A stretch of DNA of 55,800 bases, from assembly GCA_002453165.1 (NCBI GenBank), contig DKGH01000136.1:1522-57321 (forward strand), given 5' to 3'. Made by a program: the position numbers and the translations under genes. How positions within the stretch are numbered: the stretch's first letter is position 1; every line of letters begins with the position of its first letter. This document shows, one piece after another, positions 374-49,047 of this stretch. Below the pieces are notes generated by a model that ran no database searches, was not told where the DNA came from, and was given only the letters and a program-made list of their open reading frames with translations. The DNA comes from Verrucomicrobia bacterium UBA6775. Lineage in GTDB: Bacteria > Verrucomicrobiota > Verrucomicrobiia > Limisphaerales > UBA1096.

Positions 374-387
374 CGCTTGGCCAAGCG
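374..387. repeat. single copy of 14-bp perfect palindrome CGCTTGGCCAAGCG (intergenic, between apt start and sigma-factor 3' end)
   Basis: Exact self-complementary 14-mer read directly from the sequence. It is one of 14 exact copies in the window. Confidence 0.95.
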
Positions 388-462
388 GCGTCGAGACTAT
401 TGCGGGGGTTTTTCCAACTCGTCGATCTTGTGGCGCAGCTTGGCCAAGGCCGCGTTCTGCAG

Positions 463-1425
463 TTACCGCACCCGCTCGCGTGTCACGCCAAACTGTTTGC
501 CAATCTCCTCAAGCGTCGCCGTCTCATTGCCGTCCAGGCCAAAACGCCGGGTAAGGATTTCCACCTCGCGGTCCGGCAGCAACCGGATCAGCACGTGAAG
601 CAAAGTGCTGATGTTGTTATCGACCATTTCGCGATTAGGAATCACCGCTGCTTCATCCGGTACCAGTTCGCCAAGTGAGGTAATGGAATCGGCGCTCAAC
701 GGGGCATCCAGCGATGATGGCCGTCTGGCCACACGGCGCATGAGCGCGACTTTCCTTGGCGCTAGGCCAAGCGCTTGGCTAAGCTCGACATCACTAGGCT
801 CACGCCTCAACTCGTCGAGCAACCGCATCCGTTCGCGACGCATCCGCGCGATTTTTTCGACCAGATGAACCGGCAACCGGATCGTTTTCCCATGATTGGC
901 CAGAGCGCGCTTGATGCCCTGCTTGATCCACCACGAGCTGTACGTCGAAAGTTTCCCGCCCTTCTCCGGATCAAACTGCTCGACCGACTTCATCAGCCCA
1001 ATGTTGCCTTCATTGATGAGATCGGGCAGCGGCAGGCCAAGCCCCTCGTAATCGAGCGCGATCTTCACGACCAGACGCAGGTTCGCGTGGATCATCCGCT
1101 GCCGCGCCTCGTCGTCTCCCTGCCGGATGCGTTTGGCCAGACACACCTCCTCCTCGTGGGTAATGCGGTCGAAATGGCCGATTTCGCGAAAGTAGATTTT
1201 CTCCGCAGTGTGCTCGGTGGCGTCCCTGCAAACCTCCGGCGGGTCGTCCCCCGGACTGAGCGTGCGAGTCGGCGTCTCTGTTCCCAATTTTGGAATGACG
1301 ACCTGGAGCGAGCGGGGAACCGTCGCGTCAACCGACTGAAACGGAATGGACGCCGGGGTGATCCCTCGGCGGACATGCCCATTGCCGGCTTTTACCCTGG
1401 CAGGCCGCTTTACGGGCTTGGCCAT
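463..1425 (-). CDS. RNA polymerase sigma-70 family factor (RpoD/SigA-like); ORF ends at an in-frame TAA inside region 4.2
   Basis: Region 2 motifs are present: [15 protein letters not shown] and [37 protein letters not shown]. Region 4 is [15 protein letters not shown], followed by the stop. The same frame continues LQNAALAKLRHKIDELEKPPQ to a TAG at 397-399. Confidence 0.85.
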
Positions 1426-1511
1426 GTATGAATTCTTCTGCTGTCAAGGCAAGCGCGCAAGAAAAAAACGAAAACACTTGTCAGCGCTTTCAGTATCGTG
1501 GAATCTTGGAC

Positions 1512-3146: not shown

Positions 3147-5027
3147 GTGAAACGGTTTTCATTTCTAGCTTCCCTGTTGCTGGCCGCATGCGTTGTCCTC
3201 AGCCCGAGAGCAGCCGGGCCGGACGACCAGTTTATCCAGGCCTACATCCAGATCACCCAGGCCGACAATTTGGCCAAAAGCGCCCAAAACAGTTCAGCCG
3301 CCGAGAAATATCAGGATGCACTCAACACACTGAAGGCACTCAAGGCCGGCAATCCCGGGTGGAAAACCGGCGTCATCGACTTCCGGATCGACTATGTCAC
3401 CAAAAAACTCAAGGCCCTCAACGTCAGCACCCCGGATACACCGACCGCTCCCAAGCCGGTGGCCAAGCCGGCCGTGTTCGATGCCGAGACCGCGCGACTG
3501 AGAATCAGCGACCTGACCCGCCGACTCGAATCCCTCGAGAACAACCTCACGCTTAAGGACGCCCAACTCAAGGAAGCCCTTTCCGCGGTCCCCTCCGCAG
3601 ACGAAACCAAGCGCTTGGCCAAGCTCGAGAGTGACCTTGCCGGCTTGAAGCAAGAAAACAATTCACTCAAGGCATCCGTCGATACATCAACCGCCCAGTT
3701 GAAGGTCGCGCAGGCGGACTTGGCCAAGGCGCAAGCTAAGGCAACCAAGGCCACCGCCGACATGGCCAAGGCCCAGGCCAAGGCCGACGAGGTCGCACTC
3801 GAATTGTCCAACGCACAGGACCGCATCAAGGCCGCCGAGGCAAACGCCAGCGACAAGGAAATCAAGCGGCTTCAGGAAGCTCTCGCAGAGCGGCAAACCG
3901 AACTCAATGCAGCCAGCAGCGAGTTGACCACAGCCAAAGCCTCCGTTGCCTCCCTTGAGGAAAAACTCAAGTCGTACGACAAGGGCACCGCTGAAAAGGA
4001 TCTCGAGGCAAAAGTGGCCTCGCTGGAAAAACAGCTCAACAAAAGCCAGGGCGAACTGCAGCAGACCACCACCAAACTCAGCGATGCCGCCACTGCAAAC
4101 TCTGACCTCGAAAAAGAAATCAAGTCCCTCGAAAAAGAATCCCGCGAAAAAGAACTCACCAGCTACATCAATTCACTCGAAAAACGCTTAGCCAAGGCTG
4201 AGCGGGCCAATGTGGCATCCGGTAACAACCAGCCAAGAAGCAAGCGCAGTTTCCGGGACATGTTTAATTTCCGGGGCAGAAAGCGTGCCGAGAACGCTCA
4301 GGTCGCCGAGTTGCAAAACCAAGTCAAGACCCTCCGCGCCCGTTTGGAAATACTCGATGCCGAGAAGGTTCCGCTGACTGCGGAAGAACAAGAATTGCTC
4401 ACCGATCCGCAGGTAACGCCCGCCCCGGAAAATACGCTTGAAGCAAGACTCGCCAGCATCCCCGCTGGGCAAGTCGAAAACTTCAAGGCCGGAGAAGCCA
4501 ATCTCTTCAGGGATCATCAGTATGCCGAGGCCGAGGCGAAATTTATGCACGTCCTCAAGCTGGACGAGAATAATCCCCTCACCTTGTCCAATCTGGCTAT
4601 AGCACAGATGGAACAGGAAAAATACGAAGACGCTCAAGCCAGCCTAGATCGGGCACTCCAACAGGATCCGAACGACCCCTACGCGTTGAGGGGAATCGGC
4701 ATGTTGAGTTTTCGTAAAAAGGATTACGAGGCGGCACGGGACAATCTCGCGAGAGCGGTTCAGCTCATTCCGGGCGACGCTGTCACTCAGCATTTTCTCG
4801 GCTCCACCCTCCAGCTACTTGGCCAAGCGAAAGCGGCCGAGACCGCGCTACGCAAAGCCGTCCAACTCGAACCGGGACACGCCAAGTCGCACTTCAACCT
4901 CGCTGTGGTTTACGCCACCCAAAAACCACCGTTCGTCGCCTTGGCCAAGTTCCACTACAACAAGGCTCTCCAGGCGGGACACCCGAAAGACGATGCGTTG
5001 GACAAACGCATCAATGGGGAGAATTGA
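3147..5027 (+). CDS. secreted coiled-coil / TPR-repeat protein
   Basis: Signal-peptide-like start (GTG 3147: MKRFSFLASLLLAACVVLS). A long Ala/Lys/Glu-rich heptad-like region follows. The C-terminus has TPR-like repeats (AEAKFMHVLKLDENNP, ALQQDPNDPYALRGIG, AVQLEPGHAKSHFNLAVVY). Confidence 0.7.
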   Translation: MKRFSFLASLLLAACVVLSPRAAGPDDQFIQAYIQITQADNLAKSAQNSSAAEKYQDALNTLKALKAGNPGWKTGVIDFRIDYVTKKLKALNVSTPDTPTAPKPVAKPAVFDAETARLRISDLTRRLESLENNLTLKDAQLKEALSAVPSADETKRLAKLESDLAGLKQENNSLKASVDTSTAQLKVAQADLAKAQAKATKATADMAKAQAKADEVALELSNAQDRIKAAEANASDKEIKRLQEALAERQTELNAASSELTTAKASVASLEEKLKSYDKGTAEKDLEAKVASLEKQLNKSQGELQQTTTKLSDAATANSDLEKEIKSLEKESREKELTSYINSLEKRLAKAERANVASGNNQPRSKRSFRDMFNFRGRKRAENAQVAELQNQVKTLRARLEILDAEKVPLTAEEQELLTDPQVTPAPENTLEARLASIPAGQVENFKAGEANLFRDHQYAEAEAKFMHVLKLDENNPLTLSNLAIAQMEQEKYEDAQASLDRALQQDPNDPYALRGIGMLSFRKKDYEAARDNLARAVQLIPGDAVTQHFLGSTLQLLGQAKAAETALRKAVQLEPGHAKSHFNLAVVYATQKPPFVALAKFHYNKALQAGHPKDDALDKRINGEN

Positions 5028-5030
5028 CTC

Positions 5031-5492: not shown

Positions 5493-6932
5493 ATGGCGAA
5501 CTCTGTTTCTTTTCTCCGTCGTATTGTCTTTGTAGCCGGTGCATTTGCGCTTGGCCAAGCGGCTGTTCAGGCCGACGTCAAACTCCCCTCCGTCTTTGGC
5601 GACCACATGGTCTTACAGCAGGGCCAAAGGCTCCCGGTCTGGGGTTGGGCCGAGCCCGGAGAGGCAGTGACCGTGGCCGTAGCCGGACAAACCAAGTCAA
5701 CCAAGGCCAACAAGAAAGGCGCTTGGCAGGTACGACTCAAGCCTCTCAAGGCCAGCAAGACTCCCGTCCCCTTTTCGGTGAAAGGCAAAAACACGATCGA
5801 GTACAAGGACGTGCTAGTCGGTGAGGTGTGGCTCTGCTCCGGTCAATCCAACATGGAATGGCGCGTCTCACAATCGGCCAACCCGCAGGAGGAGATTGCC
5901 AATGGCAAGCATCCTCTGATTCGTCACATCAAGGTTCCCCATCGCCCCTCCGACAAACCGGAGCGGGACGTCACTCCCCAGCGCGGAGGTTGGGAGGTGG
6001 CCAGCCCGGACACCGTCGCGAACTTCACTGCCGTCGGCTACTACTTCGCCCGCCACCTGAAGGGCGAACTCGACGTGCCGATCGGCCTGCTTGGCTCAAA
6101 CTGGGGTGGCACGCGCATCGAGCCGTGGACACCTCCCGCTGGATTCAAGTCCGTCCCCGCCCTGAAAGACATCGCCGAAAACCTCAAGGATTACCCGAAG
6201 AAAGGCGGCAACGGGAACATTCAACACCAGTCCGCGCTCGCGCTTTACAACGGCATGATCTCCCCGCTGAAACCGTACGGCATCCGAGGCGCAATCTGGT
6301 ATCAGGGCGAATCCAACAACGGCGAGGGCATGCTCTATTACGAGAAGAAAAAAGCCCTTATCAACGGCTGGCGCAGCGTCTGGAAAAACAAGAAGCTGCC
6401 GTTTTATTTCGTGCAGCTCGCGCCGTTCAAGTACGGCAACCGCAATCCGCACGATCTCGCCGGCATTTGGCAGGCACAACTCAGTGCTCTCGACATCCCG
6501 CACACCGGCATGGCTGTGACCACCGACATCAGCAACACCCGCGACATTCATCCGAAGAACAAGCAGGAAGTCGGACGCCGCCTTGCACTCTGGGCGCTCG
6601 CAAAGAATTACGGCAAGAAGGACCTCGTTTACTCCGGCCCGTTGTTCAAGTCGTTCAAGGAAAAGGACCGCCGCATCATCGTCAAGTTCGACCACGGCAA
6701 GGGCATCAAGTCCAGCAACGACAAGCCGCTCACTCACTTTGAACTACAGGGACCGGACGGCAAATGGTTCCCGGCCGGCGCCAACATCCACGAGGACGAA
6801 TTGATCGTCTCCAGTAAGGCGGTCCGCGAACCGAAAAACGTCCGCTTCGGATGGAACCAGGAGGCGGAACCGAATCTGGTCAACGGAGCCGGTCTACCGG
6901 CCTCGCCGTTCACCACTGAGAATATCAAGTAA
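5493..6932 (+). CDS. sialate O-acetylesterase-like SGNH/DUF303 hydrolase, secreted
   Basis: Signal peptide ending in ALGQAAVQA. The VWLCSGQSNMEW catalytic serine block and the GAIWYQGESN block are both present. Confidence 0.8.
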   Translation: MANSVSFLRRIVFVAGAFALGQAAVQADVKLPSVFGDHMVLQQGQRLPVWGWAEPGEAVTVAVAGQTKSTKANKKGAWQVRLKPLKASKTPVPFSVKGKNTIEYKDVLVGEVWLCSGQSNMEWRVSQSANPQEEIANGKHPLIRHIKVPHRPSDKPERDVTPQRGGWEVASPDTVANFTAVGYYFARHLKGELDVPIGLLGSNWGGTRIEPWTPPAGFKSVPALKDIAENLKDYPKKGGNGNIQHQSALALYNGMISPLKPYGIRGAIWYQGESNNGEGMLYYEKKKALINGWRSVWKNKKLPFYFVQLAPFKYGNRNPHDLAGIWQAQLSALDIPHTGMAVTTDISNTRDIHPKNKQEVGRRLALWALAKNYGKKDLVYSGPLFKSFKEKDRRIIVKFDHGKGIKSSNDKPLTHFELQGPDGKWFPAGANIHEDELIVSSKAVREPKNVRFGWNQEAEPNLVNGAGLPASPFTTENIK

Positions 6933-6933
6933 C

Positions 6934-6958
6934 CGCTTGGCCAAGCGCTTGGCCAAGC
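6934..6958. repeat. tandem dimer of the palindrome (CGCTTGGCCAAGCGCTTGGCCAAGC), 1 nt after the stop codon
   Basis: The TAA stop of the esterase gene is at 6930-6932. The 25-mer is almost perfectly self-complementary: GCTTGGCCAA GCGC TTGGCCAAGC gives a 10-bp stem with a 4-nt loop. Confidence 0.95.
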
Positions 6959-6962
6959 CGCC

Positions 6963-8069
6963 ATGAGCGCAGTCTCAAACCAACTTCGCAGGGCCGGTGC
7001 CATTTTTGGCACGGCCCTGTTTCTTTTGGCCGCAGCTCCGCTTGGCCAGGCGGATCAAAACACCGCTCCGGATTTCAAGATTCGCGAAGGTAAAAATGGG
7101 CGTCTGCCCAAGCTTAACACCGCCCTCCCGAGGTACGTTCAAGTTTTCGGGCTGTTCATTCACGCCACCAGCCGTGTACCGGAGGCCAAACTGCTCCACG
7201 CCGCCGACATCGCCGCCGATTTTCTGGACAACAATCGCGACGGGAAACCGGACAATCCGGAGGTAAACGACACGCTCTGGAGCGAACGCTCGGCCGTCGT
7301 CATGGGCTACAATGAACGTGAACTGGATCGGCTCCATGACCGACTGGACGATCAGGTTGATGACTACGCACTGCAGGGACTTTTCGCCACCGAGACGCTG
7401 CCCAAGGGCGGGCCGCACAATGCAAACTCCTCCGAGTTCGATGCCTCGATTGAGGAAATTCTTCACATCATTACCTCCATCGGTTATGCCGAGACTTACC
7501 CGGACGTGTTCGGCGAACGGCGCGGCTCTGAACTGGCCAAGGCGATGGACGTCGCGCGGGGCGGCTACTTTCGATCCGTCCCCCGCCGATATCCCGCCGG
7601 GGCGTGGTACTCGTACGATGATCGCACCTGCGACTACGGCTGTCAGGTGACCGAGTACGTTTACTGGTCGCTGACCAGTATGCTCGACGGGCAGGACTTC
7701 CGGAACCGCGGCCGCGACATCAGCCACGAGTGGAAACTCAACACGCCGGAAAAACTCCGCGCCAAGGACAAGGCCGTCGTCAAGATCCTGACCGATCCGA
7801 AATACAAGCTCCCCACACGTCTTCCCGATGGCAAATATCAGCAGGCCAGGAAACTTTCCTCCGTAAAACTGAACGCCTCACCCGGAACCGACAGCATCAC
7901 GCTCACCGCGAAATTCCCGCCGGACACCATCGTCCGATTGGAAAAAAGCCACGACCTCCAACAATGGATCGTGGCCCAAAATATTGACGACCACGACGGA
8001 ACAGTCAGCCTGCCCATGGACGCACGCGCATCGCAGGCACAGTTTTTCCGTCTGCGCTTCAGCGAATAG
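6963..8069 (+). CDS. hypothetical secreted protein
   Basis: A 368-aa ORF with a signal peptide (ALFLLAAAPLGQADQ). I recognise no family. Coding-like composition and tight spacing to its neighbours support it. Confidence 0.6.
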   Translation: MSAVSNQLRRAGAIFGTALFLLAAAPLGQADQNTAPDFKIREGKNGRLPKLNTALPRYVQVFGLFIHATSRVPEAKLLHAADIAADFLDNNRDGKPDNPEVNDTLWSERSAVVMGYNERELDRLHDRLDDQVDDYALQGLFATETLPKGGPHNANSSEFDASIEEILHIITSIGYAETYPDVFGERRGSELAKAMDVARGGYFRSVPRRYPAGAWYSYDDRTCDYGCQVTEYVYWSLTSMLDGQDFRNRGRDISHEWKLNTPEKLRAKDKAVVKILTDPKYKLPTRLPDGKYQQARKLSSVKLNASPGTDSITLTAKFPPDTIVRLEKSHDLQQWIVAQNIDDHDGTVSLPMDARASQAQFFRLRFSE

Positions 8070-8080: not shown

Positions 8081-8863
8081 ATGCGGCTGTTCGACGCTCA
8101 CAATCATTTACAGGACAACCGCTTCCCCGACGACACCGCTTCGATGCTCGCCGAATGCACGGAGGCCGGGCTGGTTCGAATGGTCGTCAACGGAACCCGC
8201 GAATCGGACTGGGACATGGTGGCCCAACTGGCCGGGCAACATCCGCAGGTCATACCCAGTTTTGGTCTGCACCCATGGTTTGTCCCCGAACGCTCCACGG
8301 ACTGGCTGTCCAGGCTCGAGCAACTGCTCGACGCTTGGCCAAGTGCGGTTGGCGAGATCGGGCTCGATCGATGGAAACCCGGACTACCCTACGACGAGCA
8401 GGAGGAGGTTTTTCTCGCGCAGTTGAGCCTCGCCGCCAGGCGCTATCTTCCCGTCAGCATACATTGCCTCAAGTCTTGGGGACGGCTCCTCGAGTTGCTC
8501 CGGGAAAACCGGACACCGGATCGTGGATTTCTGCTCCACAGCTACGGCGGCCCGGCTGAGATGGTCGAGCCGTTGGCCAAGTTGGGCGCCTACTTTGGCT
8601 TTCCCGGGTACTTTGCCCATGAGCGAAAAAAACGGCAGCACGAGGTGTTCCGGCGTGTGCCCGCCGACCGGCTGCTGATCGAGACCGATGCCCCCGACCA
8701 GACGCTGCCGGAAAACCGTGTCACCCATCCGCTTGGCCAAGGGCTCAATCACCCGGCGAATATCGCCGCCGTTTATGAGGCCGCCGCCGAGGCGCTTGGC
8801 CAAGCGCCCGAGTCACTAGCCGAACAGGCGGAGGAAAATTTTCTTCGGTTTTTTGGTGAATGA
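8081..8863 (+). CDS. TatD family metal-dependent hydrolase/DNase
   Basis: The N-terminal MRLFDAHNHL metal-binding motif, GEIGLD, SIHC and LLIETDAPD blocks are present. Confidence 0.85.
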   Translation: MRLFDAHNHLQDNRFPDDTASMLAECTEAGLVRMVVNGTRESDWDMVAQLAGQHPQVIPSFGLHPWFVPERSTDWLSRLEQLLDAWPSAVGEIGLDRWKPGLPYDEQEEVFLAQLSLAARRYLPVSIHCLKSWGRLLELLRENRTPDRGFLLHSYGGPAEMVEPLAKLGAYFGFPGYFAHERKKRQHEVFRRVPADRLLIETDAPDQTLPENRVTHPLGQGLNHPANIAAVYEAAAEALGQAPESLAEQAEENFLRFFGE

Positions 8864-8864: not shown

Positions 8865-10928
8865 TCACCCGTGTCTCGCGACCAGTTCGCGGGCTTTTTG
8901 GATCAGGCGCCAGTCCTCGATGAGGTTACCGAACTTGAAATCCGGCAGGCCGCTCTGCGCCTGACCAAGCAGTTCGCCGGGGCCGCGCTGACGCAGGTCT
9001 TCCTCCGCCAACTCGAAGCCGTCGCTGATATTCTCCATCACGGCCAGCCGGTGTTGCCCCTCCTCGGTGGCATCCTCGGCAACGAGAATGCAAAACGACT
9101 CGTGCGAACCGCGCCCGATGCGTCCCCGGAGTTGATGCAGTTGCGCCAACCCAAACCGATCGGCATTCTCGATCAACATGATCGTGGCGTTGGGGATGTC
9201 CACGCCGACCTCGATCACGCTGGTGGAAAGCAGCGCCTTGATTTCGCACGACAAAAAACCGCCGATCACTGCCTCCTTTTCGTCCGATTTCAAACGACCA
9301 TGCAACAGCCCAACCGTGTGCGGGGCAAGCTGTTCCCGGACGGCATCAAACTCCTGATTGACCGCCTTAAGATTGCCGCTGCCCTGATCATCCACACGCG
9401 GATAAACAATGTACGCCTGACGGCCCTCGACGATTTTTTCGCGAATAAATCCCCACACCTTGGGCAGGCTTTCCGGGGTTCGGACGAACGTCCTCACGCG
9501 GCCCCGACCGGGCGGCAGTTCATCGATCACGGAGCAATCGAGATCCCCGTAAACAGTCAACCCGAGCGTGCGCGGAATCGGCGTGGCGGTCATCACCAAC
9601 ACGTGCGGATAGCGTCCCTTTTTCACCAGTTTCTTCCGCTGTTCCACGCCAAACTTGTGCTGTTCATCGATGATTGCCAACCCGATATTCTCGAGCGCAA
9701 ACCCCTCCTCCACCAGGGCATGCGTCCCGACCACGACCGGCGACAATGCTTCGTCATCCATCCCCAGTTCCCTCTGTGCCGGGTCGATTTCGCATAGTGT
9801 TTTTTTGCTGCCGGTGTGCAGGTGAACCGTGATGCCCAGCGGCGAAAACCAGTTCCCAAAAACCCGGTAATGCTGCTCCGCCAAAATCTCGGTTGGCGCG
9901 AGCACCACCGCGCTAAACCCGCTCTCGATCGCCCGCAACGCGGCGCAGGCAGCCACCGCGGTTTTTCCCGATCCGACATCCCCCTGCAACAGGCGACGCA
10001 TCGGAAACGACCCGGCCATGTCGCGGGCGACATCCTCCCATGCCCGCTGCTGCGCCCCGGTCAGTGTGAATCCCAGTCCCTCGATATACGGCTTCACCAG
10101 CCTCTCGTCCCCGGTGCAGTCGAGCGCCTGGATCGTCGATCGAAACCTTTTTCGTTTTTCCTGAATTTGAATTTGGAACCGGATGAACTCCTCCAGAGCC
10201 AGGCGTTCCCGCGCCATCTCCGTCTGCTCGATGTCATCCGGGAAGTGCACCGCCTTGAACGCCTCAGGAAGCGGGAGCCAATGACTGTCGTCGCCGGCCA
10301 GCCAAGATTCGCGTTCATCGATCATCTGCTCCGCGTATCCCTCCACCGCGCGCCACATGACTGCCCGCAGCCATCGTTGCTTAATGCCCTCGGTCAACCG
10401 GTACACCGGCACAACGCGCTTGAGGTGAATGAACTCCTCACCCTCCTCCGCCACCTCGGCCTCGGGATGATCCATCGAACGGGGTTTCTCATAGGAAAGT
10501 TTGCCGTGGACGTGAACCGTGTCGCCGGTTTTGTAATAGCGATTCATATACGGCATGTTCCACCAGCGGCAGTGAAGCCTCGCTGATCCGTCGTCGATGA
10601 TAAACTCAAACAGGCTGCGACCGCCACGCATGCGCTTGACGCCGGCCGCCACGATTGGCCCCGCCACGGTGGCAATGTCGCCCTTGGCAAGGCGCTTGAT
10701 CTCGTGTGGCTGGTTTCTATCCTCGTAACGCTTCGGCCCGTGCCAGAGCAGATCGCCAATCGTGCGAATGCCCAGCTTGGCCAAGCGCGACGCCCGTTCA
10801 CCCCCGACACCCCCAAGGGAGGCGACAGGCTGGTCGATGGGATGCGGTGGCGACTCGGACACTGGCGCGAGTCTACCGGCAACACCGCGCTTGGCCAAGC
10901 CGTGCCGGTTTACCTTTTGCTTGGCCAA
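8865..10928 (-). CDS. recG: ATP-dependent DNA helicase RecG
   Basis: The wedge-domain N-terminus, Walker A LLQGDVGSGKTAVA, the DEQH box IIDEQHKFGV, and QLHQLRGRIGRG are present. The start is uncertain: either TTG at 10928 (inside a palindrome copy) or GTG at 10862. Confidence 0.9.
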   Translation of the reverse strand: MAKQKVNRHGLAKRGVAGRLAPVSESPPHPIDQPVASLGGVGGERASRLAKLGIRTIGDLLWHGPKRYEDRNQPHEIKRLAKGDIATVAGPIVAAGVKRMRGGRSLFEFIIDDGSARLHCRWWNMPYMNRYYKTGDTVHVHGKLSYEKPRSMDHPEAEVAEEGEEFIHLKRVVPVYRLTEGIKQRWLRAVMWRAVEGYAEQMIDERESWLAGDDSHWLPLPEAFKAVHFPDDIEQTEMARERLALEEFIRFQIQIQEKRKRFRSTIQALDCTGDERLVKPYIEGLGFTLTGAQQRAWEDVARDMAGSFPMRRLLQGDVGSGKTAVAACAALRAIESGFSAVVLAPTEILAEQHYRVFGNWFSPLGITVHLHTGSKKTLCEIDPAQRELGMDDEALSPVVVGTHALVEEGFALENIGLAIIDEQHKFGVEQRKKLVKKGRYPHVLVMTATPIPRTLGLTVYGDLDCSVIDELPPGRGRVRTFVRTPESLPKVWGFIREKIVEGRQAYIVYPRVDDQGSGNLKAVNQEFDAVREQLAPHTVGLLHGRLKSDEKEAVIGGFLSCEIKALLSTSVIEVGVDIPNATIMLIENADRFGLAQLHQLRGRIGRGSHESFCILVAEDATEEGQHRLAVMENISDGFELAEEDLRQRGPGELLGQAQSGLPDFKFGNLIEDWRLIQKARELVARHG

Positions 10929-10952
10929 GCTGAGTCGTAGACTGCGCCGCCG

Positions 10953-13080: not shown

Positions 13081-13179
13081 CGTGGCGCAAAACCTACGGC
13101 AGCCTCGTGGCGAAACCAAGTCGCTTGGCCACTTTTGACTTTTGAGCCGGGCAGATTCGTTTTTGACTTGGCCAAGCCG

Positions 13180-13752
13180 ATGAGCAACAACGAATTTCAA
13201 TCCATACTCGATGGCATTTGGCAACGATTGGCCAAGGCGGCCAAAGACCCGGCCGATCCCTGGCGACTACCCACCCTTGCCGCACAGGGGCTAAATGGTC
13301 CCAGCGCGCGCACGATGGTGATGCGCAGCGCAGACTCCTCAGAAAGGTTACTCACTGCGCAAACCGATATCCGCTCCACCAAGATTTCCGGCTTCCGCAA
13401 AGATCCACGTGTCGCCTGGCTGTTCTTCGATCCAGCAAAACAGGAACAGGTGCGGGCGACCGGCCGTGCGATTATCCATCACGATGACGACATCACGCGG
13501 CGCGCTTGGCCAAGCGTGCCCGAGGCGAACCAATACAACTACGCCACGGGGCACGCACCGGGAGCGAGCATCGACGATCCCGCACAGGGTCAGGCAACGA
13601 GTGGCGATCTGGCAAAAGCCTACGACAACTTCGCCGTAATCCGGTGCGAAATCACCGCGATCGACTGGCTGCAACTCGGTACGACAGCCCACCGGCGTGC
13701 ACAGTTTTCATGGAACGGCACCGATTGGCTGGCTACTTGGGCCGTGCCATAA
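13180..13752 (+). CDS. pyridoxamine 5'-phosphate oxidase-like FMN-binding protein
   Basis: A 190-aa C-terminal part of track ORF 12424..13752, starting at ATG 13180. It has a PNPOx-like pattern (PSARTMVMRS...DIRSTKI...DPRVAWLFFD...QVRATG). The upstream part of the track ORF is antisense to rlmB and is rejected. Confidence 0.7.
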   Translation: MSNNEFQSILDGIWQRLAKAAKDPADPWRLPTLAAQGLNGPSARTMVMRSADSSERLLTAQTDIRSTKISGFRKDPRVAWLFFDPAKQEQVRATGRAIIHHDDDITRRAWPSVPEANQYNYATGHAPGASIDDPAQGQATSGDLAKAYDNFAVIRCEITAIDWLQLGTTAHRRAQFSWNGTDWLATWAVP

Positions 13753-16225: not shown

Positions 16226-16247
16226 GAATAAATTCCCACACAATAAA

Positions 16248-16973: not shown

Positions 16974-16988
16974 AAGCCATCAAAGTAA

Positions 16989-18374: not shown

Positions 18375-18377
18375 AAC

Positions 18378-19784: not shown

Positions 19785-19787
19785 TGC

Positions 19788-27247: not shown

Positions 27248-27262
27248 CAGGTATTTCTCGGC

Positions 27263-33918: not shown

Positions 33919-34563
33919 ATGGAAGATACATTCCTCATCGTGGGTCTGGGCAATCCCGGAAGGGAATATGCCGGCACCCGACACAACATCGGGTTCATGA
34001 CGCTTGAGCGCTTGGCCAAGCGCTTGGCCTTGGATTGGCAGGTGAATAAAAAATTTACCGCCCACTTGGCCAAGAGCAATCAGGGAGATGCAACTCTCCT
34101 GCTATGCCAACCGCAGGGCTACATGAACGTAAGTGGCAAGACCGTTGCGCCGCTGGCCAGATTTTACCAAATCCCGGCCGATCGCATTGTTGTCGTGCTG
34201 GATGACTTGGATTTGCCGCTTGGCACGCTGCGCATGCGACCCGGTGGAGGCACCGGCGGCCACCGCGGACTCGAGTCCATCAGGGAGTGTCTCGGTACCG
34301 GTGAGTTTCCGCGATTGCGGATCGGGATCGGGCGACCTGCCCCGGCTCGGGATCTGTCCGGTTTTGTGCTCGGCAAATTCACCGAGGACGAATCCGGCCA
34401 ACTGGAAAAGGTGCTGGAAAAAGCGGCGGATCAGCTCGAATGCTGGATGAGCCGGGGCCTGCAGGCGGCCATGAACAATTACAACGGGGATATTTCCCCA
34501 CCGAAAGAGAAGAAAGATGACGAAATACGAAGGAACGATCATCCTGAAGGAAGCGGGACGTGA
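33919..34563 (+). CDS. pth: peptidyl-tRNA hydrolase
   Basis: LIVGLGNPGREYAGTRHNIGF and GGHRGLESI motifs. Its 3' end overlaps the rpsF start by 47 nt. It contains an in-CDS palindrome array at 34001-34030. Confidence 0.9.
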   Translation: MEDTFLIVGLGNPGREYAGTRHNIGFMTLERLAKRLALDWQVNKKFTAHLAKSNQGDATLLLCQPQGYMNVSGKTVAPLARFYQIPADRIVVVLDDLDLPLGTLRMRPGGGTGGHRGLESIRECLGTGEFPRLRIGIGRPAPARDLSGFVLGKFTEDESGQLEKVLEKAADQLECWMSRGLQAAMNNYNGDISPPKEKKDDEIRRNDHPEGSGT

Positions 34564-36369: not shown

Positions 36370-36394
36370 CGCTTGGCCAAGCGCTTGGCCAAGT
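36370..36394. repeat. tandem dimer of the palindrome between convergent genes (abuts the carA stop codon)
   Basis: CGCTTGGCCAAGCGCTTGGCCAAGT. The carA stop (TAA, minus strand) is at 36394-36396 and the upstream gene's stop is at 36354-36356. Confidence 0.95.
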
Positions 36395-37632: not shown

Positions 37633-37683
37633 CTTGGCCAAGCGTAACTGAAAAACCAAGACGACCGTCCGCTTGGCCAAGCG
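37633..37683. repeat. two palindrome copies in the divergent carA/pgk intergenic region
   Basis: CTTGGCCAAGCG at 37633 and CGCTTGGCCAAGCG at 37670. Confidence 0.9.
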
Positions 37684-40303: not shown

Positions 40304-41905
40304 ATGACTTTCAAAAGCGTTCCTGTGCGATTGGCGGGAACGTTTTTTTTGTGCCTGTTGCTGCTTGGCCAAGCGGGCTGCTTTCAGCGGCATGACCGGG
40401 CCGACTTCACTGTCATCAATGGCCCCGACCCCGAGGCGCTTGACCCCGCGATCATCACCAGCCAGGCGGATGGCCGGATCGTCTCCGCGATGTTCGAGGG
40501 CCTCACCCGATTCAACGCCGTCACCGCCCAGGCTGAGCCGGCCTTGGCCAAGCGCTGGGAAATCTCGGACGACGGGACGGTCTATACTTTTCACCTTCGG
40601 GAGAATCTCCGCTGGTCCACCGGCGAGCCGATCACGGCCGCCGATATTGTCTACTCGTGGCAACGCGCCGTGAACCCGCTCACTGCCAGCGACTATGCCG
40701 GCATGCTTTTTTACGTCAAAAACGCCGAGGCGATTAACAGTGGCAAAATCTCCGACCTCACCCAACTCGGTGCCAAGTCCGTCGACCCACAGACCGTCCG
40801 AGTCGAACTGACCGGCCCCACCCCGTTTTTCCTCGAGTTGTGCGCGTTCTGGACGCTCGCTGTTGTGCCGCAAAAAACCATCGAGCAACACGGCGACCAA
40901 TGGTGCCTCAGCAACCCCCTCTCGGTCAGTGGCTCGCACACGCTCGACTTTTGGAACGTGCGCGACCGGGTTCGGCTGCGGAAAAACGAACAGTACTGGG
41001 ATGCCGCCAACACGAAAAACAACATCGTCGATTTTCTCCCGGTCGATTCCCCGGCTACTGCGATCAACCTGTTCGAGGCCGGCCAAGCGGATGTGATTTG
41101 GGACAAGAGCCTCGTGCCCACCGAGTTGCTCGACGCGCTCAGCACCCACCCCAGTTTTCACAAATTCGATTACCTCGGCAGTTACTTCGTGCGGTTCAAC
41201 ACAACCAAAAAACCGCTCGATGATCCCCGCGTGCGCAAGGCGATGGCGCTGGCAGTCGACAAGGCGAGGATCGTCGAGAAATACACCAAGGGCGGCGAGC
41301 GCTTGGCCCGGCACTTTGTCCCACCCGGCACCGGTAACTACACCTCGCCGGAGGGGCTGTCGCACGACGTCCGCTTGGCCAAGCGGCTGCTAGCCGAGGC
41401 CGGTTACCCGGACGGCAACGGTTTCCCCACCGACTTTGAATACCTCTTCAACTCAAGCGAACTCAACCGCAACATCGCCGTCGAGCTGCAGCGGATGTGG
41501 AAAGAGACGCTTGGCATCCAGATCAAGCTGCGACAGGCGGAAAACAAGGTCTACCTCTCCGCGCAAAGCGCGCTGGACTACCACGTCTCGCGCAGTAGTT
41601 GGATCGGCGACTACAACGACCCCAACACCTTTCTCGACATGTTCATGAGCCAGAACGGCAACAACCGCACCGGCTGGAGCAATGAGCAATACGACCAAAC
41701 CATCCGCTTGGCCAATGCCACCACCGATCCAACCAAGCGTCACGAATTGTTCCAACAGGCGGAGACCATGTTGATCAACGACGAACTGCCAATCTTCCCG
41801 CTTTTCTTTTATGTCGGCATCAACATTTATCATCCTGATCGCATTGGCGGCATCCACCCGAACATCCTCGACATCCACCCAATCAACGCCATCTACGCGA
41901 AATAG
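40304..41905 (+). CDS. ABC transporter substrate-binding lipoprotein, family 5 (oligopeptide/dipeptide-type)
   Basis: Lipobox LLLLGQAGC and the SBP_bac_5 pattern (EGLTRFN ... LAKRWEISDDGTVYTFHLRENLRWS). No permease or ATPase genes are adjacent. Confidence 0.85.
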   Translation: MTFKSVPVRLAGTFFLCLLLLGQAGCFQRHDRADFTVINGPDPEALDPAIITSQADGRIVSAMFEGLTRFNAVTAQAEPALAKRWEISDDGTVYTFHLRENLRWSTGEPITAADIVYSWQRAVNPLTASDYAGMLFYVKNAEAINSGKISDLTQLGAKSVDPQTVRVELTGPTPFFLELCAFWTLAVVPQKTIEQHGDQWCLSNPLSVSGSHTLDFWNVRDRVRLRKNEQYWDAANTKNNIVDFLPVDSPATAINLFEAGQADVIWDKSLVPTELLDALSTHPSFHKFDYLGSYFVRFNTTKKPLDDPRVRKAMALAVDKARIVEKYTKGGERLARHFVPPGTGNYTSPEGLSHDVRLAKRLLAEAGYPDGNGFPTDFEYLFNSSELNRNIAVELQRMWKETLGIQIKLRQAENKVYLSAQSALDYHVSRSSWIGDYNDPNTFLDMFMSQNGNNRTGWSNEQYDQTIRLANATTDPTKRHELFQQAETMLINDELPIFPLFFYVGINIYHPDRIGGIHPNILDIHPINAIYAK

Positions 41906-42062
41906 CGCTTGGACAAGCGGAAAAGAAAAATCGGTTTTGGCCCTTTTAACGCTTTTCTTTTAGCCCAGTTTTTACGAGATTTGCCGCCCTTTTTCGCCAA
42001 GGAGTGTGAACGTCGCGGCAAACTTTCATCGCACGATGCACTCATTTGGCCAGTAGAATATC

Positions 42063-43129: not shown

Positions 43130-44218
43130 ATGACTCCACGTGAGGCTTTGGTGGTTTTGAATTTACTCGAGGGAATCGGGCCGATTCGGACCCGCCAACT
43201 GCTCGAGTTTTTCGGGGCGGCAACCAAGGTGCTCGAGGCACCGCTCCCTGCGCTCAGGCGTGTGAAGGGAATCGGGGATGATCTGGCCTCAACCATTCGA
43301 CAGTGGGAAACCACAACCGACCTGACCGGTGAACTGAAACGAGTCGAGGAATTCGGGGCGCGGCTCGTTTTTCAGGAGGACGACGAGTATCCCGAGTTGC
43401 TGCGGGAAATCTACGATCCTCCAATCGTGCTTTACGTGAAAGGCCGGCTGTTGCCGGAGGATCGCAACAGCATCTCGATGGTCGGCGCGCGCCGGACGAC
43501 CCACTACGGCCAGGACACCGCCCGCAAACTCGCGTACCAACTTGCCGGCGCAGGCATCACGGTGGTCAGCGGCGGCGCGCGCGGCATCGACTCCGCCTCG
43601 CATCAGGGCGCCCTCTCGGCCAAGGGCCGAACCCTCGCCGTGCTCGGCACCGGCATCAACATTGTTTACCCGGCGGAAAACGCGGAGCTGTACGAACGCA
43701 TCTCGGAGAACGGCGCCGTGCTTACCCAGTTCCCCTTCAACCGGAAGGGCGACAAGCAGAGCTTCCCAATCCGCAACCGCATCGTTGCCGGGATGACGCT
43801 TGGCACCGTGGTGGTGGAGGCCGACCTGAAAAGCGGCTCGCTGATCACCGCCAATATGGCGGCGGACAACAACCGGCAGGTGTTCGCCGTGCCCGGTCGG
43901 GTGGACTCGCCGCAGAGCCGCGGCTGCCACAACTTGATCCGCGAGGGCGCAGTCCTCTGCGAAAATGCGGATGACATTCTCGCGGAGTTCGAAAATCTGG
44001 CGCTTGGCCAAGCGGACGACTCACCCAACCTGCCCCTGGCTAACCTCACCGAGACGGAGCAAAAGATCCTCGACGTATTGGACGCAACCGAGCAGCCGAT
44101 CGATACGCTCATTGACAGGACCGGCCTCCCGGTGTCGAGCGTCTCTGTGGCGTTGTTGGGATTGGAAATGAAGCGCCTGGCCAAGCAGTTGCCCGGCAAG
44201 CTATTCGCCCGTCGGTAA
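43130..44218 (+). CDS. dprA: DNA-processing protein DprA (Smf)
   Basis: GARGIDSASHQGAL, FPIRNRIVAG and LITANMAADNNRQVFAVPG. Confidence 0.9.
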   Translation: MTPREALVVLNLLEGIGPIRTRQLLEFFGAATKVLEAPLPALRRVKGIGDDLASTIRQWETTTDLTGELKRVEEFGARLVFQEDDEYPELLREIYDPPIVLYVKGRLLPEDRNSISMVGARRTTHYGQDTARKLAYQLAGAGITVVSGGARGIDSASHQGALSAKGRTLAVLGTGINIVYPAENAELYERISENGAVLTQFPFNRKGDKQSFPIRNRIVAGMTLGTVVVEADLKSGSLITANMAADNNRQVFAVPGRVDSPQSRGCHNLIREGAVLCENADDILAEFENLALGQADDSPNLPLANLTETEQKILDVLDATEQPIDTLIDRTGLPVSSVSVALLGLEMKRLAKQLPGKLFARR

Positions 44219-45709: not shown

Positions 45710-45713
45710 GCCG

Positions 45714-47228
45714 CTATCTCCTCACAACCTCCACTTTTTCCGGCGCAGCGCCTTCCGGCTTGGCCAAGCGCACGATTTTTTCCACCTCGCCATTGATGCG
45801 CTTGGTTAACAGGTTCGGTGCAAAACCGAACACCAGCAACATCGCCAAAAGCAGGCCAAACGCTGTCGCCACCAACGGCTTGGCATCGGACGCGTTGTCC
45901 CAATCGTCGCCCTGTGGACCGTGTAAAATATTTCGGATAGCCCGCAGCATGTAGAGGCCGCCAATGACCAGCGCACTCCACGCGGCGATCACGGTGATGG
46001 TCTGAAAACCAGCCGACCACGCTGCAAAAAAGATGGTGATCTCTCCGGCAAAGTTGGCAAAACCCGGTAGACCGCATCCGGCCATCATCGCCATCAGCAA
46101 CGCCGTCCCGGCCAAGGGCATCTTGCGCAACAGACCGCCCATCCGTGTCATATCGAGTGATCGGTGTTGCTGATAGAGGTGGCCGCTCAAGCCAAACGCA
46201 AGTGCCGCAAGCAACCCGTGGGCGATCATCACCAGCACCGCGCCGGTCAACCCGATGACGTTAAGGCTGGCGATACCCAAAAAGATGAAGCCCATGTGCG
46301 CCACACTCGAGTTACCGATCAGCAGGTTCAAATCCTTTTGCCGTACAGCAACCAAGCCACAAAACAGGAGGTTGGCCAAGGCCAACCAAGCCATCACCTC
46401 GAGCCAGCCTTGCGCCCCGACCGGTGCCATCGGGATCGCCACGCGGATGAGTCCGTACAAACCGAATTTTTTCAGCACCCCGGCGTGCAGCATGGCGGTG
46501 GCCGTGGGTGCGGCACCGTAACCGAGCGGTGCCCATGTGTGAAACGGCCAAAGTGAAACGAGAATACCAAAACCAAACATCAGCAGCGGAAAAATCCACT
46601 GTTGCGCGGATTCCGTGATCGGTTTCTCCTCCACCGCTTTCATCAAATCCGGAATACTGAATGATTCTGCACCGGTTTGCACGTAGACGCCAATCAAGCC
46701 GATCAACGCCAGCAGCGCCCCGAAGCTCAAATAAAGCGTTATTTTGTAGGTGGCGTAATTCCGGTTCTGCCCCCTGCCCCACACTCCGATCATGATAAAG
46801 GTCGGCACAAGCGCCAGCTCGTGGAAAAAGTAAAAGAAAAACAAATCCATCGAGGCGAACGCACCGAGGATACCGCAGATCATGAGATTGAGCAGAAAGT
46901 AAAATTCCTTGATACGATGCGTGACATCACCCGCACAACAAACCGCCGCAAACGCCACCACGGCTCCCATGAAAATGATCCCGATGTTGATGCCATCCGC
47001 CGCCAGGTAAAATTTCAAACCAAGGCTCTCCACCCAGGTCCATTCAGTTACAAACTGCAAACCACCATTTGGATCGAACGAACAAAAAGCAATTAGTGAG
47101 AGCAGAGCCGTCAACCACGATGCGCCAAGTGTGACACCTCGGATGGCACCGATCCGGTCGCCGGGAATGACCCCAACCACCAGACCCGCTAATAGCGGCA
47201 GCATCACTATGAAAAACAGGTAGTCCAT
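45714..47228 (-). CDS. nuoM: NADH-quinone oxidoreductase subunit M
   Basis: Antiporter-like subunit with the HTWAPLGYGAAPTATAMLHAGVLKKFG block. Confidence 0.9.
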   Translation of the reverse strand: MDYLFFIVMLPLLAGLVVGVIPGDRIGAIRGVTLGASWLTALLSLIAFCSFDPNGGLQFVTEWTWVESLGLKFYLAADGINIGIIFMGAVVAFAAVCCAGDVTHRIKEFYFLLNLMICGILGAFASMDLFFFYFFHELALVPTFIMIGVWGRGQNRNYATYKITLYLSFGALLALIGLIGVYVQTGAESFSIPDLMKAVEEKPITESAQQWIFPLLMFGFGILVSLWPFHTWAPLGYGAAPTATAMLHAGVLKKFGLYGLIRVAIPMAPVGAQGWLEVMAWLALANLLFCGLVAVRQKDLNLLIGNSSVAHMGFIFLGIASLNVIGLTGAVLVMIAHGLLAALAFGLSGHLYQQHRSLDMTRMGGLLRKMPLAGTALLMAMMAGCGLPGFANFAGEITIFFAAWSAGFQTITVIAAWSALVIGGLYMLRAIRNILHGPQGDDWDNASDAKPLVATAFGLLLAMLLVFGFAPNLLTKRINGEVEKIVRLAKPEGAAPEKVEVVRR

Positions 47229-47229
47229 T

Positions 47230-49047
47230 CTAACTCAACGCAAACACCAATACCGCAGCCAAGCCGGCGGCAAACCAGAAGGCGTACGTCTGCAGGTTGC
47301 CGGTCTGGGCCAGGCGCAACACACGCCCAGCAAACTCGGTCGAGCCGTGCGCGCCACGAACCAGCAGCCCGGCGATGATCCATCGGTCAATGATGTCGGC
47401 CAGCTTGGCCAAGCGCTCCTGCACCTTGTCGATGAACCATTGATAAATTTCATCGAACCAAAACCGGGCCTTCATCGCTCTGGCAATAAAACCAAGCCTG
47501 ACCGGCAACGGATCGTCGGTTGCATTTCGATAAATCGAGTTGGCCAACAGAGCACCGAACACCACCGCGATCAACGAGGCGAACAGGATCAACGGATCCG
47601 GCGCGTGCATATTGAAGTAACCGGCGACCACCGACGGCACAGCGAGGATCAACAGCGGCAAGGTCATCACGACCGGACTTTCCTTCGCGTGCTCCGCGTG
47701 TTTCGAGCGCGGCTCGCCGCAAAACGCGACAAGGAACAATCGGGTCATGTAAAACGTCGTCAGCACGGCCACCGCGACTGCGATCAAAAACAACGGCATA
47801 CTCTCCTTGTACGCCACTGTGAGGATCGCTTCCTTGCTGAAAAAACCACTGAACAACGGCACCCCGCACAGCGCCAGTGTACCGATTAAAAAAGTCCAGT
47901 ATGTCCTCGGCATCCGCCTGCGCAGACCGCCCATTTTCCAGATATCCTGTTCATGGTGGCAGGCGTAGATCACCGACCCGGCCCCGAGAAACAGCATCGC
48001 CTTGAAAAAGGCGTGGGTCGTCAGGTGAAACATTGCTGCATCAGTTCCGGCGACATTGGTGATTTTATAATAGTCGCTATTAGTCTCTCCGCCCAACCCC
48101 ACCACCATCACCATGTAGCCCAGTTGCGAAAGCGTTGAGTAGGCGAGGATCCGTTTGATGTCATCCTGCTGAACCGCCATGAGAGCGGCCATAAGAGAGG
48201 TGATGCCACCGATCCATGCAATCGCCTCCATCGCCCATGTGCCCTCAATCAGGAAAAACACACGGCACAACATATACACGCCAGCCGCAACCATCGTCGC
48301 CGCGTGAATGAGTGCGCTAACCGGGGTCGGGCCCTCCATCGCGTCCGGCAGCCAGACGTGAAGAGGTGCCTGCGCGGACTTGCCTATCGCACCACAGAAA
48401 ATCAGAAAACCGGCCAAGCCACAAAGTACCGTCGCCTTCTCCTTTTCCAGAACATCAAAACTAACCGAACCGAACGCCGCCCACACCATGAGGATACCCA
48501 GCAGAAAACCGAAATCCCCGACGCGGTTCGTCATGAACGCCTTTTTCGCCGCATCGGCTGCGCTTGGTTTATCAAACCAAAAGCCGATCAACAGGTAACT
48601 CGAAACGCCGACCAACTCCCAAAAGATGAACATCATCACGAAGTTGTCGGCCAACACGATGCCGAGCATCGAAAAAATGAACAAACTCAGGAAAGCAAAA
48701 TAACGGGAGAAGTCGCGATCCTCCTTCATATAGCCAAGCGAGAAAATGTGAATCAGGCTGCCAACGCCGGTCACAACGCAGAGCATGAGTTTGCTCAACC
48801 CATCGATCTTCAAACCGATGTCCACACTTAGTCCATCTAACCGCAGCCAACTGACCTTAGGACTTGGACCTTGCCCATCTGGGAACTCCGAGCCGTTGGC
48901 CACCATAACAAATGTCAGGATAAATGACCCCACAACTGCTGCGATGGATATGCCCGCGCTGATCGGTTTAGAGCGGAACGCACCAATACCGATCGTCACA
49001 GCTGAAATCAGCGGCAGCAAGAAGATGAGCCATGCAGCGAGTTCCAT
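47230..49047 (-). CDS. nuoL: NADH-quinone oxidoreductase subunit L
   Basis: FWELVGVSSYLLIGFW and HVWLPDAMEGPTPVSALIHAATMV, plus a long C-terminal amphipathic arm. Confidence 0.9.
   Translation of the reverse strand: MELAAWLIFLLPLISAVTIGIGAFRSKPISAGISIAAVVGSFILTFVMVANGSEFPDGQGPSPKVSWLRLDGLSVDIGLKIDGLSKLMLCVVTGVGSLIHIFSLGYMKEDRDFSRYFAFLSLFIFSMLGIVLADNFVMMFIFWELVGVSSYLLIGFWFDKPSAADAAKKAFMTNRVGDFGFLLGILMVWAAFGSVSFDVLEKEKATVLCGLAGFLIFCGAIGKSAQAPLHVWLPDAMEGPTPVSALIHAATMVAAGVYMLCRVFFLIEGTWAMEAIAWIGGITSLMAALMAVQQDDIKRILAYSTLSQLGYMVMVVGLGGETNSDYYKITNVAGTDAAMFHLTTHAFFKAMLFLGAGSVIYACHHEQDIWKMGGLRRRMPRTYWTFLIGTLALCGVPLFSGFFSKEAILTVAYKESMPLFLIAVAVAVLTTFYMTRLFLVAFCGEPRSKHAEHAKESPVVMTLPLLILAVPSVVAGYFNMHAPDPLILFASLIAVVFGALLANSIYRNATDDPLPVRLGFIARAMKARFWFDEIYQWFIDKVQERLAKLADIIDRWIIAGLLVRGAHGSTEFAGRVLRLAQTGNLQTYAFWFAAGLAAVLVFALS

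Follow-up and report, generated by a model that had tools for sequence, protein, structure and literature searches.

What makes a bacterial chromosome carry the same short palindrome, CGCTTGGCCAAGCG, over and over, inside genes as well as between them? The question is raised by a stretch of 55,800 nucleotides, here called the window, from Verrucomicrobia bacterium UBA6775 (contig DKGH01000136.1, positions 1,522 to 57,321 of the forward strand). A preliminary description had pointed to this 14-mer as an autonomous palindrome that must be actively generated or selected, and the analysis reported here supports that claim. The 10-mer core CTTGGCCAAG, extended to CGCTTGGCCAAGCG, is very probably a lineage-specific iterated word of the type of the highly iterated palindromes (HIP) or the DNA uptake sequences (DUS), and is maintained at the DNA level. 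A role specifically in transformation or recombination is argued by analogy and stays tentative, being judged somewhat more apt to be wrong than right, while the explanation as a whole, mechanism included, is given slightly less than an even chance.

Abundance of the word

The exact 14-mer is present 14 times in the window against a mean of 0.00 and a maximum of 0 in dinucleotide shuffles, and the exact core 38 times against a mean of 0.12 and a maximum of 1. Allowing up to one mismatch gives 34 14-mers where 0.02 are expected. The inner 8-mer TTGGCCAA has 51 copies, in which more than half of all TGGCCA sites lie. These counts agree with the preliminary description. All of its 14-mers were found (its start at 41382 is a typing error for 41372), its 38 cores lie exactly where they were listed, and its six one-mismatch 14-mers (7039, 23826, 27726, 30260, 32055 and 41906) are present together with 14 further one-off copies. 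It had also stated that the copies share no flanks, and in the alignment of copies conservation ends about three bases on each side, with the consensus S-CG-CTTGGCCAAG-CG-S. The hard core is the 8- to 10-mer (C)TTGGCCAA(G), with a less strict CG on either side.

The density of the core is 680 per Mb in the window and 890 per Mb (0.89 per kb) in its native DNA, an excess of about 300-fold over the shuffles and about 590-fold over an outgroup of the same G+C content (GC). A maximal-order Markov test is uninformative because the motif dominates every sub-word; an order-3 Markov model, a synonymous-codon shuffle and the empirical outgroup were used in its place. The order-3 model, trained on the window and its relatives, predicts 6.4 cores where 667 were seen. 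The synonymous-codon shuffle of the native genes, which preserves every protein and the codon usage, gave a mean of 0.95 cores and a maximum of 4 in 300 shuffles, where 25 are seen in coding sequence. Similarly, 17 of the 27 L-A-K tripeptides are spelled TTGGCCAAG against about 6% predicted from codon usage. The outgroup of 80 loci from other Verrucomicrobiota (1.29 Mb, GC 0.58), which are RecG relatives among the matches listed, at identities of 59% or less and thus not usable as orthologues, contained the 10-mer once and the 14-mer not at all. The claimed excess over expectation was therefore recovered, and is put at several hundred-fold, with shuffles, Markov model, codon shuffle and outgroup.

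Origin and upkeep of the copies

The history of individual copies was followed in alignments with related genomes. In relatives at 83-95% identity the sites are either occupied alike or point-substituted, and no insertions were seen apart from an indel of one 13-bp unit near 22090. In relatives at about 70-75% identity 174 site-by-genome cells were scored for the window sites; 56 are exact and 112 have at most one mismatch, where background 10-mers are conserved in 5-9%. Three sites that are perfect in the window (3614, 8334 and 13505) depart from the core at 2-6 positions when far relatives are compared. Such sites indicate convergence on the consensus in place; the copy at 3614..3623 probably arose de novo, and the differences at 13503..13516 likewise suggest that the window copy has converged. 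Thus the copies are not inserted but arise in place by point substitution, in coding sequence and in spacers alike, and the earlier view of an autonomous short palindrome that is not part of a longer mobile unit holds.

Once present, the copies are retained. In 44 pairwise alignments, grouped into three identity bands, monomer cores were intact in 49, 69 and 79% of comparisons against 12, 24 and 50% for background 10-mers; dimers were excluded from these counts, which come from non-independent genome pairs and from loci partly chosen for the dimer. The window-centred analyses, namely the site-by-genome cells and the four-fold degenerate sites, are independent of that choice of loci. Divergence at four-fold degenerate sites was 0.138, 0.070 and 0.000 within cores against 0.514, 0.395 and 0.179 elsewhere in the same alignments, or 3.7-5.6 times slower, and the constraint therefore acts on the DNA and not on the protein. 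Perfect copies are held by a force at the DNA level that overrides synonymous drift.

The distribution of matches points the same way. Copies of the 10-mer with 0, 1 and 2 mismatches number 38, 26 and 68. Under neutral decay the loss of a perfect 10-mer from its class would be some 30 times as fast as the return of a given one-off copy to it, so 38 perfect against 26 one-off copies would imply a strong bias toward perfection. Among six Tara-type population contigs that are 99.9% identical to the window, 0 variable core sites were seen against 0.4 expected, numbers too small to give a comparison of polymorphism any power.

Distribution, dialect and loss

A 24-mer form of the tandem dimer was found on more than 100 contigs of a species-representative genome collection, all of them from marine Verrucomicrobiota metagenome-assembled genomes (MAGs). 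It was found in 0 of 2.9 million viral contigs, where only single chance 14-mers were seen, so that nothing links the word to phages. The word marks a deep clade: relatives collected by way of a clade-specific hypothetical protein have 0.2-1.8 copies per kb, and this holds down to protein identities of about 58-70%. One of the word-bearing MAGs is labelled Pedosphaerales; among the relatives of this protein no word was found in Opitutia, Planctomycetes or other phyla. Near-identical contigs (99.9%) exist in independent marine assemblies, including Tara Oceans, and assemblies from separate projects and oceans contain the same copies. The copies are therefore not an assembly artefact.

In the deeper relatives L312, L314, L316, L317, L322 and L326 the one-sided variant CCTGGCCAAG is almost as common as the perfect core. 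The symmetric double variant CCTGGCCAGG is absent from this subclade. The use of CCTGGCCAAG looks like a dialect, or else a relaxation of position 2/9.

Two relatives of low GC (0.41-0.42), L320 (ETNP1_MAG_3) and L323 (XB_MAG217), have zero copies and only decayed relics at orthologous positions; in L320 the relic CTTGGCTAG-CTATTGGCTAAG is found at the position of the conserved dimer at 6934. The word was therefore present in the ancestor of the clade and decays once its upkeep is lost, and L320 and L323 are natural loss-of-maintenance lineages.

DNA of atypical composition within the window behaves differently from the remainder. The 12.9 kb of low-GC DNA contain 0 cores against 11.4 expected (P ~1e-5). 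A low-GC island (14846-19784), which encodes HlyD, an ABC ATPase and two MacB/FtsX permeases, is inserted after a hexapeptide-transferase gene. The island is present in a relative of 84% identity. In distant relatives synteny breaks at its left edge (~14700), and the insertion is therefore comparatively recent. In the nuo operon (44228-55800, minus strand) the G+C content falls from about 0.58 to 0.47 and there are no motif copies after 47404; the distal half of the operon may be foreign or may only be constrained. The same nuo arrangement is found in six independent marine assemblies and so is not a chimera.

Tandem dimers

At 6934, 19788 and 36370 two units of the word overlap in tandem with a 12-bp period; besides these three dimers there are several decayed ones. 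The full CG-bounded two-unit dimer CGCTTGGCCAAGCGCTTGGCCAAGCG is a 26-bp perfect palindrome, from which the window dimers depart only in the last one or two bases. The three lie 1-13 nt past stop codons, and in relatives about one third of 122 dimers are within 20 nt of the stop of a long open reading frame (ORF). The site at 6934 is conserved clade-wide and is predicted to form an RNA hairpin of -17.5 kcal/mol. The dimers as a group fold into 10-bp stems (-15.6 to -22.1 kcal/mol, z-scores -2.9 to -3.8), and the fold of a monomer is not significant (-5.8 kcal/mol, z = +1.2). Downstream of the dimers at 6934 and 36370 there is no U-tract, and the one at 19788 has just a short U-rich stretch behind it.

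If hairpin capacity were what is kept, compensated changes would be favoured. Compensated palindromic double variants were enriched 2.5-fold and uncompensated ones 2.0-fold, and the conserved dimer shows single uncompensated changes across relatives and no compensatory ones. It is therefore the exact word, and not the capacity to form a hairpin, that is kept.

Near 22090 the comparison with relative L019 shows that the 13-bp indel corresponds to one motif unit, with a decayed dimer in the relative facing a decayed monomer in the window. Dimers may thus arise or collapse by slippage.

Placement of the copies

The preliminary description placed copies in spacers and in coding sequences on both strands, and this is what is seen. 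In the window spacers make up only about 6-10% of the DNA but hold 14 of the 51 TTGGCCAA sites, and the coding sites use all three frames, read as L-A-K (22), L-G-Q (12) and W-P (3). When the 667 cores of the window and its relatives are taken together, 31% are intergenic against 11% of the DNA, an approximately 3-fold enrichment in spacers; about 69% are coding, with frames L-A-K 253, L-G-Q 181 and W-P 23. Along genes the coding copies (n=317) follow a U-shaped distribution, denser toward gene ends (P ~1e-6), of which the 5' excess may be inflated by miscalled start codons. No Rfam family was found at any copy. Table 1 lists the copies with their settings.

Table 1. Positions and settings of copies of the word, and of the low-GC island, in the window. 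The word is a palindrome and its copies carry no strand.
Feature	Position	Strand	Setting
Perfect 14-mer	374..387		inside coding sequence 1-396 (-), read R-L-A-K-R
Core	439..448		intergenic, 16 nt past stop of sigma-70 gene (463-1425, -)
Decayed tandem dimer GCGCTAGGCCAAGCGCTTGGCTAAGC	759..784		within sigma-70 gene; perfect core here in relative L035
Core	3614..3623		TPR protein gene, L-A-K; far relatives differ at 2-4 of 10 core positions
Core	3719..3728		TPR protein gene, L-A-K; kept in far relatives
Core	4818..4827		TPR protein gene, L-G-Q
Core	4940..4949		TPR protein gene, L-A-K
Perfect 14-mer	5548..5561		SASA-esterase gene, L-G-Q; core exact in 8/13 relatives
Tandem dimer	6934..6959		12-bp period, 24/26 positions palindromic; 1 nt past stop, 3 nt before next ATG
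One-off copy CGCTTGGCCAGGCG	7039..7052		perfect core in relative L035
Core	8334..8343		TatD gene, W-P
Core	8732..8741		TatD gene, L-G-Q
Perfect 14-mer	8793..8806		TatD gene, L-G-Q
Core	10776..10785		recG, poorly conserved N-terminal ~50 codons, L-A-K
Core	10890..10899		recG 5' end, L-A-K; exact in 10/12 relatives
Core	10920..10929		recG 5' end, L-A-K
Core	13167..13176		SpoU methylase gene, L-G-Q
Perfect 14-mer	13503..13516		ORF 13348-13692 (-); far relatives differ at 5/10 core positions
Low-GC island	14846..19784	+	HlyD, ABC ATPase, 2x MacB/FtsX; GC 0.40-0.45; negative control for the motif
13/14 copy CGATTGGCCAAGCG	15414..15427		sole motif-like site within the low-GC island
Tandem dimer	19788..19813		3 nt past stop of last island gene; RNA hairpin -22.1 kcal/mol
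Cluster: cores 23777 and 23797, one-off 23826	23775..23839		divergent intergenic region
Perfect 14-mer	25436..25449		GreA-domain protein gene, L-G-Q
Perfect 14-mer	27602..27615		rsmB, L-A-K
One-off copy	27726..27739		rsmB
Core	27871..27880		rsmB, L-A-K
Perfect 14-mer	28221..28234		rsmB, L-G-Q
One-off copy	30260..30273		intergenic
Slightly decayed dimer (one-off unit + perfect core)	32053..32078		overlaps last two bases of pheS stop (pheS end 32054)
Perfect 14-mer + partial second unit	34007..34029		inside pth, E-R-L-A-K-R-L-A
Core	34065..34074		pth, L-A-K
Tandem dimer	36370..36393		fills spacer between two convergent stop codons; RNA hairpin -15.6 kcal/mol
Core 37633 + perfect 14-mer 37670, 39 nt apart	37633..37683		divergent carA/pgk spacer
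Core	40364..40373		solute-binding protein gene, L-G-Q
Core	40543..40552		solute-binding protein gene, L-A-K
Perfect 14-mer	41372..41385		L-A-K
One-off copy CGCTTGGACAAGCG	41906..41919		begins directly past stop of solute-binding protein gene (40304-41905)
Perfect 14-mer	44001..44014		inside dprA, L-G-Q
Core	45759..45768		nuoM-like gene, L-A-K
Core, last in window	47404..47413		nuoL-like gene, L-A-K

The genes around the copies are those of an ordinary chromosome: sigma-70, IMP dehydrogenase, recG, tatD, rsmB, pheS, prs and ribosomal proteins, then pth, ssb, carA, pgk, tpiA, secG, dprA and the nuo operon. The dprA gene noted in the preliminary description is present, at 43130-44218. The product of 25259-27316 (685 aa) has its GreA/GreB N- and C-terminal domains only in the last ~180 residues, and the long N-terminal part gave no Pfam match. 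Within the nuo operon a tRNA-Gln(CTG) gene (54782-54855, plus strand) lies between the nuoF-like and nuoE-like genes of the minus strand. The nuoG-like gene (51626-53380 in the window, equivalent to ~18500-20199 in the public population contigs L304-L309) is called in those contigs as a 170-aa fragment with ~1.2 kb uncalled upstream. In the window the region is an open ORF of 584 codons that overlaps both neighbouring genes.

Search for enzymes and readers

Motif screens for m5C, N4 and N6 DNA methyltransferases and for Vsr were carried out on ~0.9 Mb of clade DNA from ~20 MAGs, a few percent of each genome, and found none. No candidate receptor for the word was found in the same small sample. 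Pfam assigned the 10 best candidates to sulfatases, oxidoreductases, a heparinase II/III-like protein, a TPR protein, planctomycete cytochrome/DUF1549-DUF1553 proteins and MutL. Where orthologues differ by a single change, C-to-T was counted 59 times at the inner C of GGCC and 19 times at the outer C (3:1), which is a weak hint compatible with a methylated, deamination-prone inner cytosine. The preliminary description had pointed to TGGCCA and GGCC as restriction-modification targets and to dprA as a competence gene, and both hints are possible leads. The window contains no restriction-modification genes. A restriction-modification target was rejected as an identity for the word, which is massively enriched and not avoided. 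CRISPR was rejected as no arrays are present, and an oriented word of the Chi or KOPS type was rejected as the word is a palindrome.

What maintains the word

Since the two-fold symmetry extends over ~14-16 bp and the two halves are equally conserved, a symmetric (homodimeric) protein would appear to read the word in duplex DNA. The hallmarks of the word match the lists known for DUS, for the uptake signal sequences (USS) and for HIP1, and for this reason a self-DNA word used in transformation or recombination is proposed. A sequence-specific symmetric protein would recognise the word, possibly with methylation of the GGCC/TGGCCA centre, and the word would thereby mark DNA as conspecific in natural transformation or homologous recombination. 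Fragments with closer matches would have the advantage in uptake, processing or recombination, and this preference could drive and maintain the word through molecular drive plus selection. The dimers at 3' ends may serve secondarily as transcript-end hairpins, as paired DUS and USS do. In its most specific form, a password of this deep clade of abundant, uncultured marine Verrucomicrobiota for transformation or recombination that is read by a symmetric receptor or a methyl-dependent factor, the proposal is doubtful.

Several results weigh against this proposal. The screens described above gave neither a methyltransferase nor a receptor, and dprA is not diagnostic of competence, as DprA is widespread in bacteria regardless of it. 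The words of DUS and USS are asymmetric and are read by a pilin or other receptor, whereas the present word is a perfect palindrome. The copies are mildly clustered, with 9 short gaps against 4.1 expected (P = 0.016), and so are not evenly spaced. The pairwise conservation counts carry the dependence between genome pairs and the choice of loci stated with them, and conservation alone fits either selection at each site or a ratchet of biased repair or conversion.

Such a ratchet is the first alternative. A methyltransferase would mark the GGCC or TGGCCA centre and the repair of near-cognate mismatches would be biased toward the full word, so that copies would build up and be restored with no function for the site itself. 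Elhai reportedly put forward a methylation-linked model of biased mismatch repair for HIP1; very-short-patch repair of the Vsr kind would be another form of such a ratchet. The nesting of classical methylation targets in the palindrome, as in HIP1, the excess of changes at the inner C and the presence of MutL in the clade are in keeping with it. So are the one-base deviations at outer positions, which are also reported for HIP1 (PMC4390886), and the loss of the word from both low-GC relatives would be expected if the repair or methylation function had been lost. The failure to find a methyltransferase or Vsr in the DNA sampled counts against the ratchet, weak test as it is. Known repair endonucleases and methyltransferases read 4-8 bp and not 10-14 bp, and known biases of the Vsr type are modest and not several hundred-fold. 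Transition variants that a system of the Vsr type should erase are not depleted but are among the commoner one-off copies, and the conserved dimers at gene ends are left unexplained. On balance the ratchet is considered unlikely.

A little less probable still is that the copies are binding sites of an abundant nucleoid-associated or chromosome-organising protein, each being kept for chromosome architecture. Xu et al. are said to have proposed a function of this kind for HIP1. Two-fold symmetry over 14-16 bp is typical of sites for homodimeric DNA-binding proteins, sequence rather than structure is conserved, and conservation is site by site, including four-fold degenerate positions; HIP1 in addition shows a periodicity of 10-90 kb (PMC5861425). 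The abundance is difficult to accommodate, as parS, matS, Noc and SlmA sites number tens per genome and not ~700-900 per Mb, and there is no obvious reason why such sites should be absent from an island shared with a relative of 84% identity.

Selection for hairpins or cruciforms, as terminators or stabilisers of mRNA 3' ends with monomers as decayed or incipient halves, is highly improbable. The stability of the dimer folds, the closeness of dimers to stops (all three in the window abut one) and the conservation of the dimer at 6934 across the clade would suit it, but most copies are monomers inside genes without a significant fold, U-tracts are largely missing, and the comparison of compensated with uncompensated variants rules it out as the sole explanation. 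A miniature mobile element spread by a transposase is effectively refuted: high copy number, palindromic form, tandem 12-bp units and the unit indel near 22090 recall one, but sequence is not conserved beyond ~3 bp of flank, most copies are coding and in all frames, orthologous sites differ by substitutions and not by presence or absence, and the dimer is missing from the viral contigs. Base composition, codon usage, peptide content and artefacts of assembly or library are refuted as sources of the word by the synonymous shuffles, by the outgroup of equal GC that is essentially without the word and by the recurrence of the copies in independent assemblies, even though GCC, AAG and GGC are favoured codons and nothing is unusual about L-A-K and L-G-Q as peptides.

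Significance

To our knowledge, hyper-abundant self words have been found in very few lineages, namely Cyanobacteria (HIP1), Neisseriaceae (DUS) and Pasteurellaceae (USS). What HIP1 does has been under debate for three decades. A further, independent case would turn a puzzle of a single lineage into a comparative one, and the present case comes from another phylum and has a longer word, a clear gain and loss among relatives and close relatives that lost the word. Genes that co-vary with the word between motif-bearing and motif-free relatives should reveal the reader protein, the methyltransferase or the uptake machinery. If the proposal of a transformation or recombination word is correct, this would be a third independently evolved system for uptake or self-recognition, after that of Neisseriaceae/Pasteurellaceae and, putatively, that of Cyanobacteria; self-biased DNA exchange would be common in free-living ocean bacteria; and the two motif-free low-GC relatives would be a natural knockout in which to find the machinery. 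In practice the word is a sharp taxonomic marker for binning these MAGs and for flagging foreign DNA in them, it distorts codon and peptide usage (most L-A-K being spelled by the word), and its 12-bp dimers mark gene ends.

Comparison with known systems

Literature searches found no paper that describes the word as a genomic repeat, the only matches being primers and oligonucleotides, and no paper that links HIPs to Verrucomicrobia, in keeping with the remark in the preliminary description that it did not recognise the palindrome as a described element. The preliminary description had named HIP1, uptake sequences and the repetitive extragenic palindromes (REP) as analogues. The first two comparisons are upheld and that with REP is not. 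REPs, together with the related bacterial interspersed mosaic elements (BIME) and REPINs of Proteobacteria, resemble the word in being abundant and palindromic and in lying, in part, just downstream of genes. However, REPs are 20-40 nt long, imperfect, strictly extragenic, mobilised by REP-associated tyrosine transposases (RAYT) and polymorphic in presence and absence, and the word is none of these.

The sites parS and matS and those bound by Noc and SlmA are also two-fold symmetric over 13-16 bp, read by dimers and conserved in sequence. They are confined to regions of the chromosome and number tens per chromosome, whereas the word is estimated at ~700-900 per Mb.

The likeness to uptake sequences is closer. 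The hallmarks of DUS and USS are copies that sit in permissive positions and are yet conserved, paired hairpins at 3' ends and absence from recently acquired DNA (PMC2397512), with about one copy per kb and dialects between lineages (PMC2397512, PMC3630211). The word has 0.89 copies per kb of native DNA, none in 12.9 kb of low-GC DNA and an apparent dialect, its copies are conserved in permissive positions, and paired copies form hairpins at gene 3' ends. DUS and USS serve preferential DNA uptake by way of a receptor such as ComP and competence machinery; of such genes dprA was the one seen in the window.

The closest resemblance is to HIP1 (GCGATCGC). As a class, HIPs are GC-rich perfect palindromes that are 15- to 300-fold over-represented, at ~300-2700 copies per Mb (PMC4390886, PMC5861425). 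HIP1 itself spreads by substitution, is conserved beyond the background, deviates at its outer bases and has been lost in some derived lineages (PMC4390886, PMC5861425). All of this is matched by the word, a short GC-rich perfect palindrome with hundreds to thousands of copies per Mb, found in genes in all frames and in spacers, driven by substitution, conserved at orthologous sites beyond background and coding constraint, with one-base deviations biased to the outermost positions, nested classical methylation targets and loss in some lineages. Alternate HIPs exist, such as GGGATCCC and CAGGCCTG, and CAGGCCTG is likewise centred on GGCC. Methylated HIP1 reportedly raises the efficiency of natural transformation (bioRxiv 10.1101/2024.09.10.611283), and HIP1 has been proposed as an uptake sequence or recombination signal (bioRxiv 10.64898/2026.06.24.733823). 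A cognate methyltransferase, often an orphan, that recognises an internal sub-sequence is a feature of the HIP class; none was found in the sample of clade DNA, which is too small to exclude one. The word differs in belonging to Verrucomicrobiota and not Cyanobacteria, in its sequence, in having a hard 10-mer core within 14-16 graded bp where HIP1 is an 8-mer, and in its frequent tandem 12-bp dimers at gene ends. Given that both sequence and phylum differ, the word is an analogue of HIP1 and not HIP1 itself. Being symmetric, it is not a DUS or USS proper either, although it behaves like both kinds. It looks like a second, independent case of a genome-wide self word beside cyanobacterial HIP1 and the uptake sequences of Neisseria and Haemophilus.

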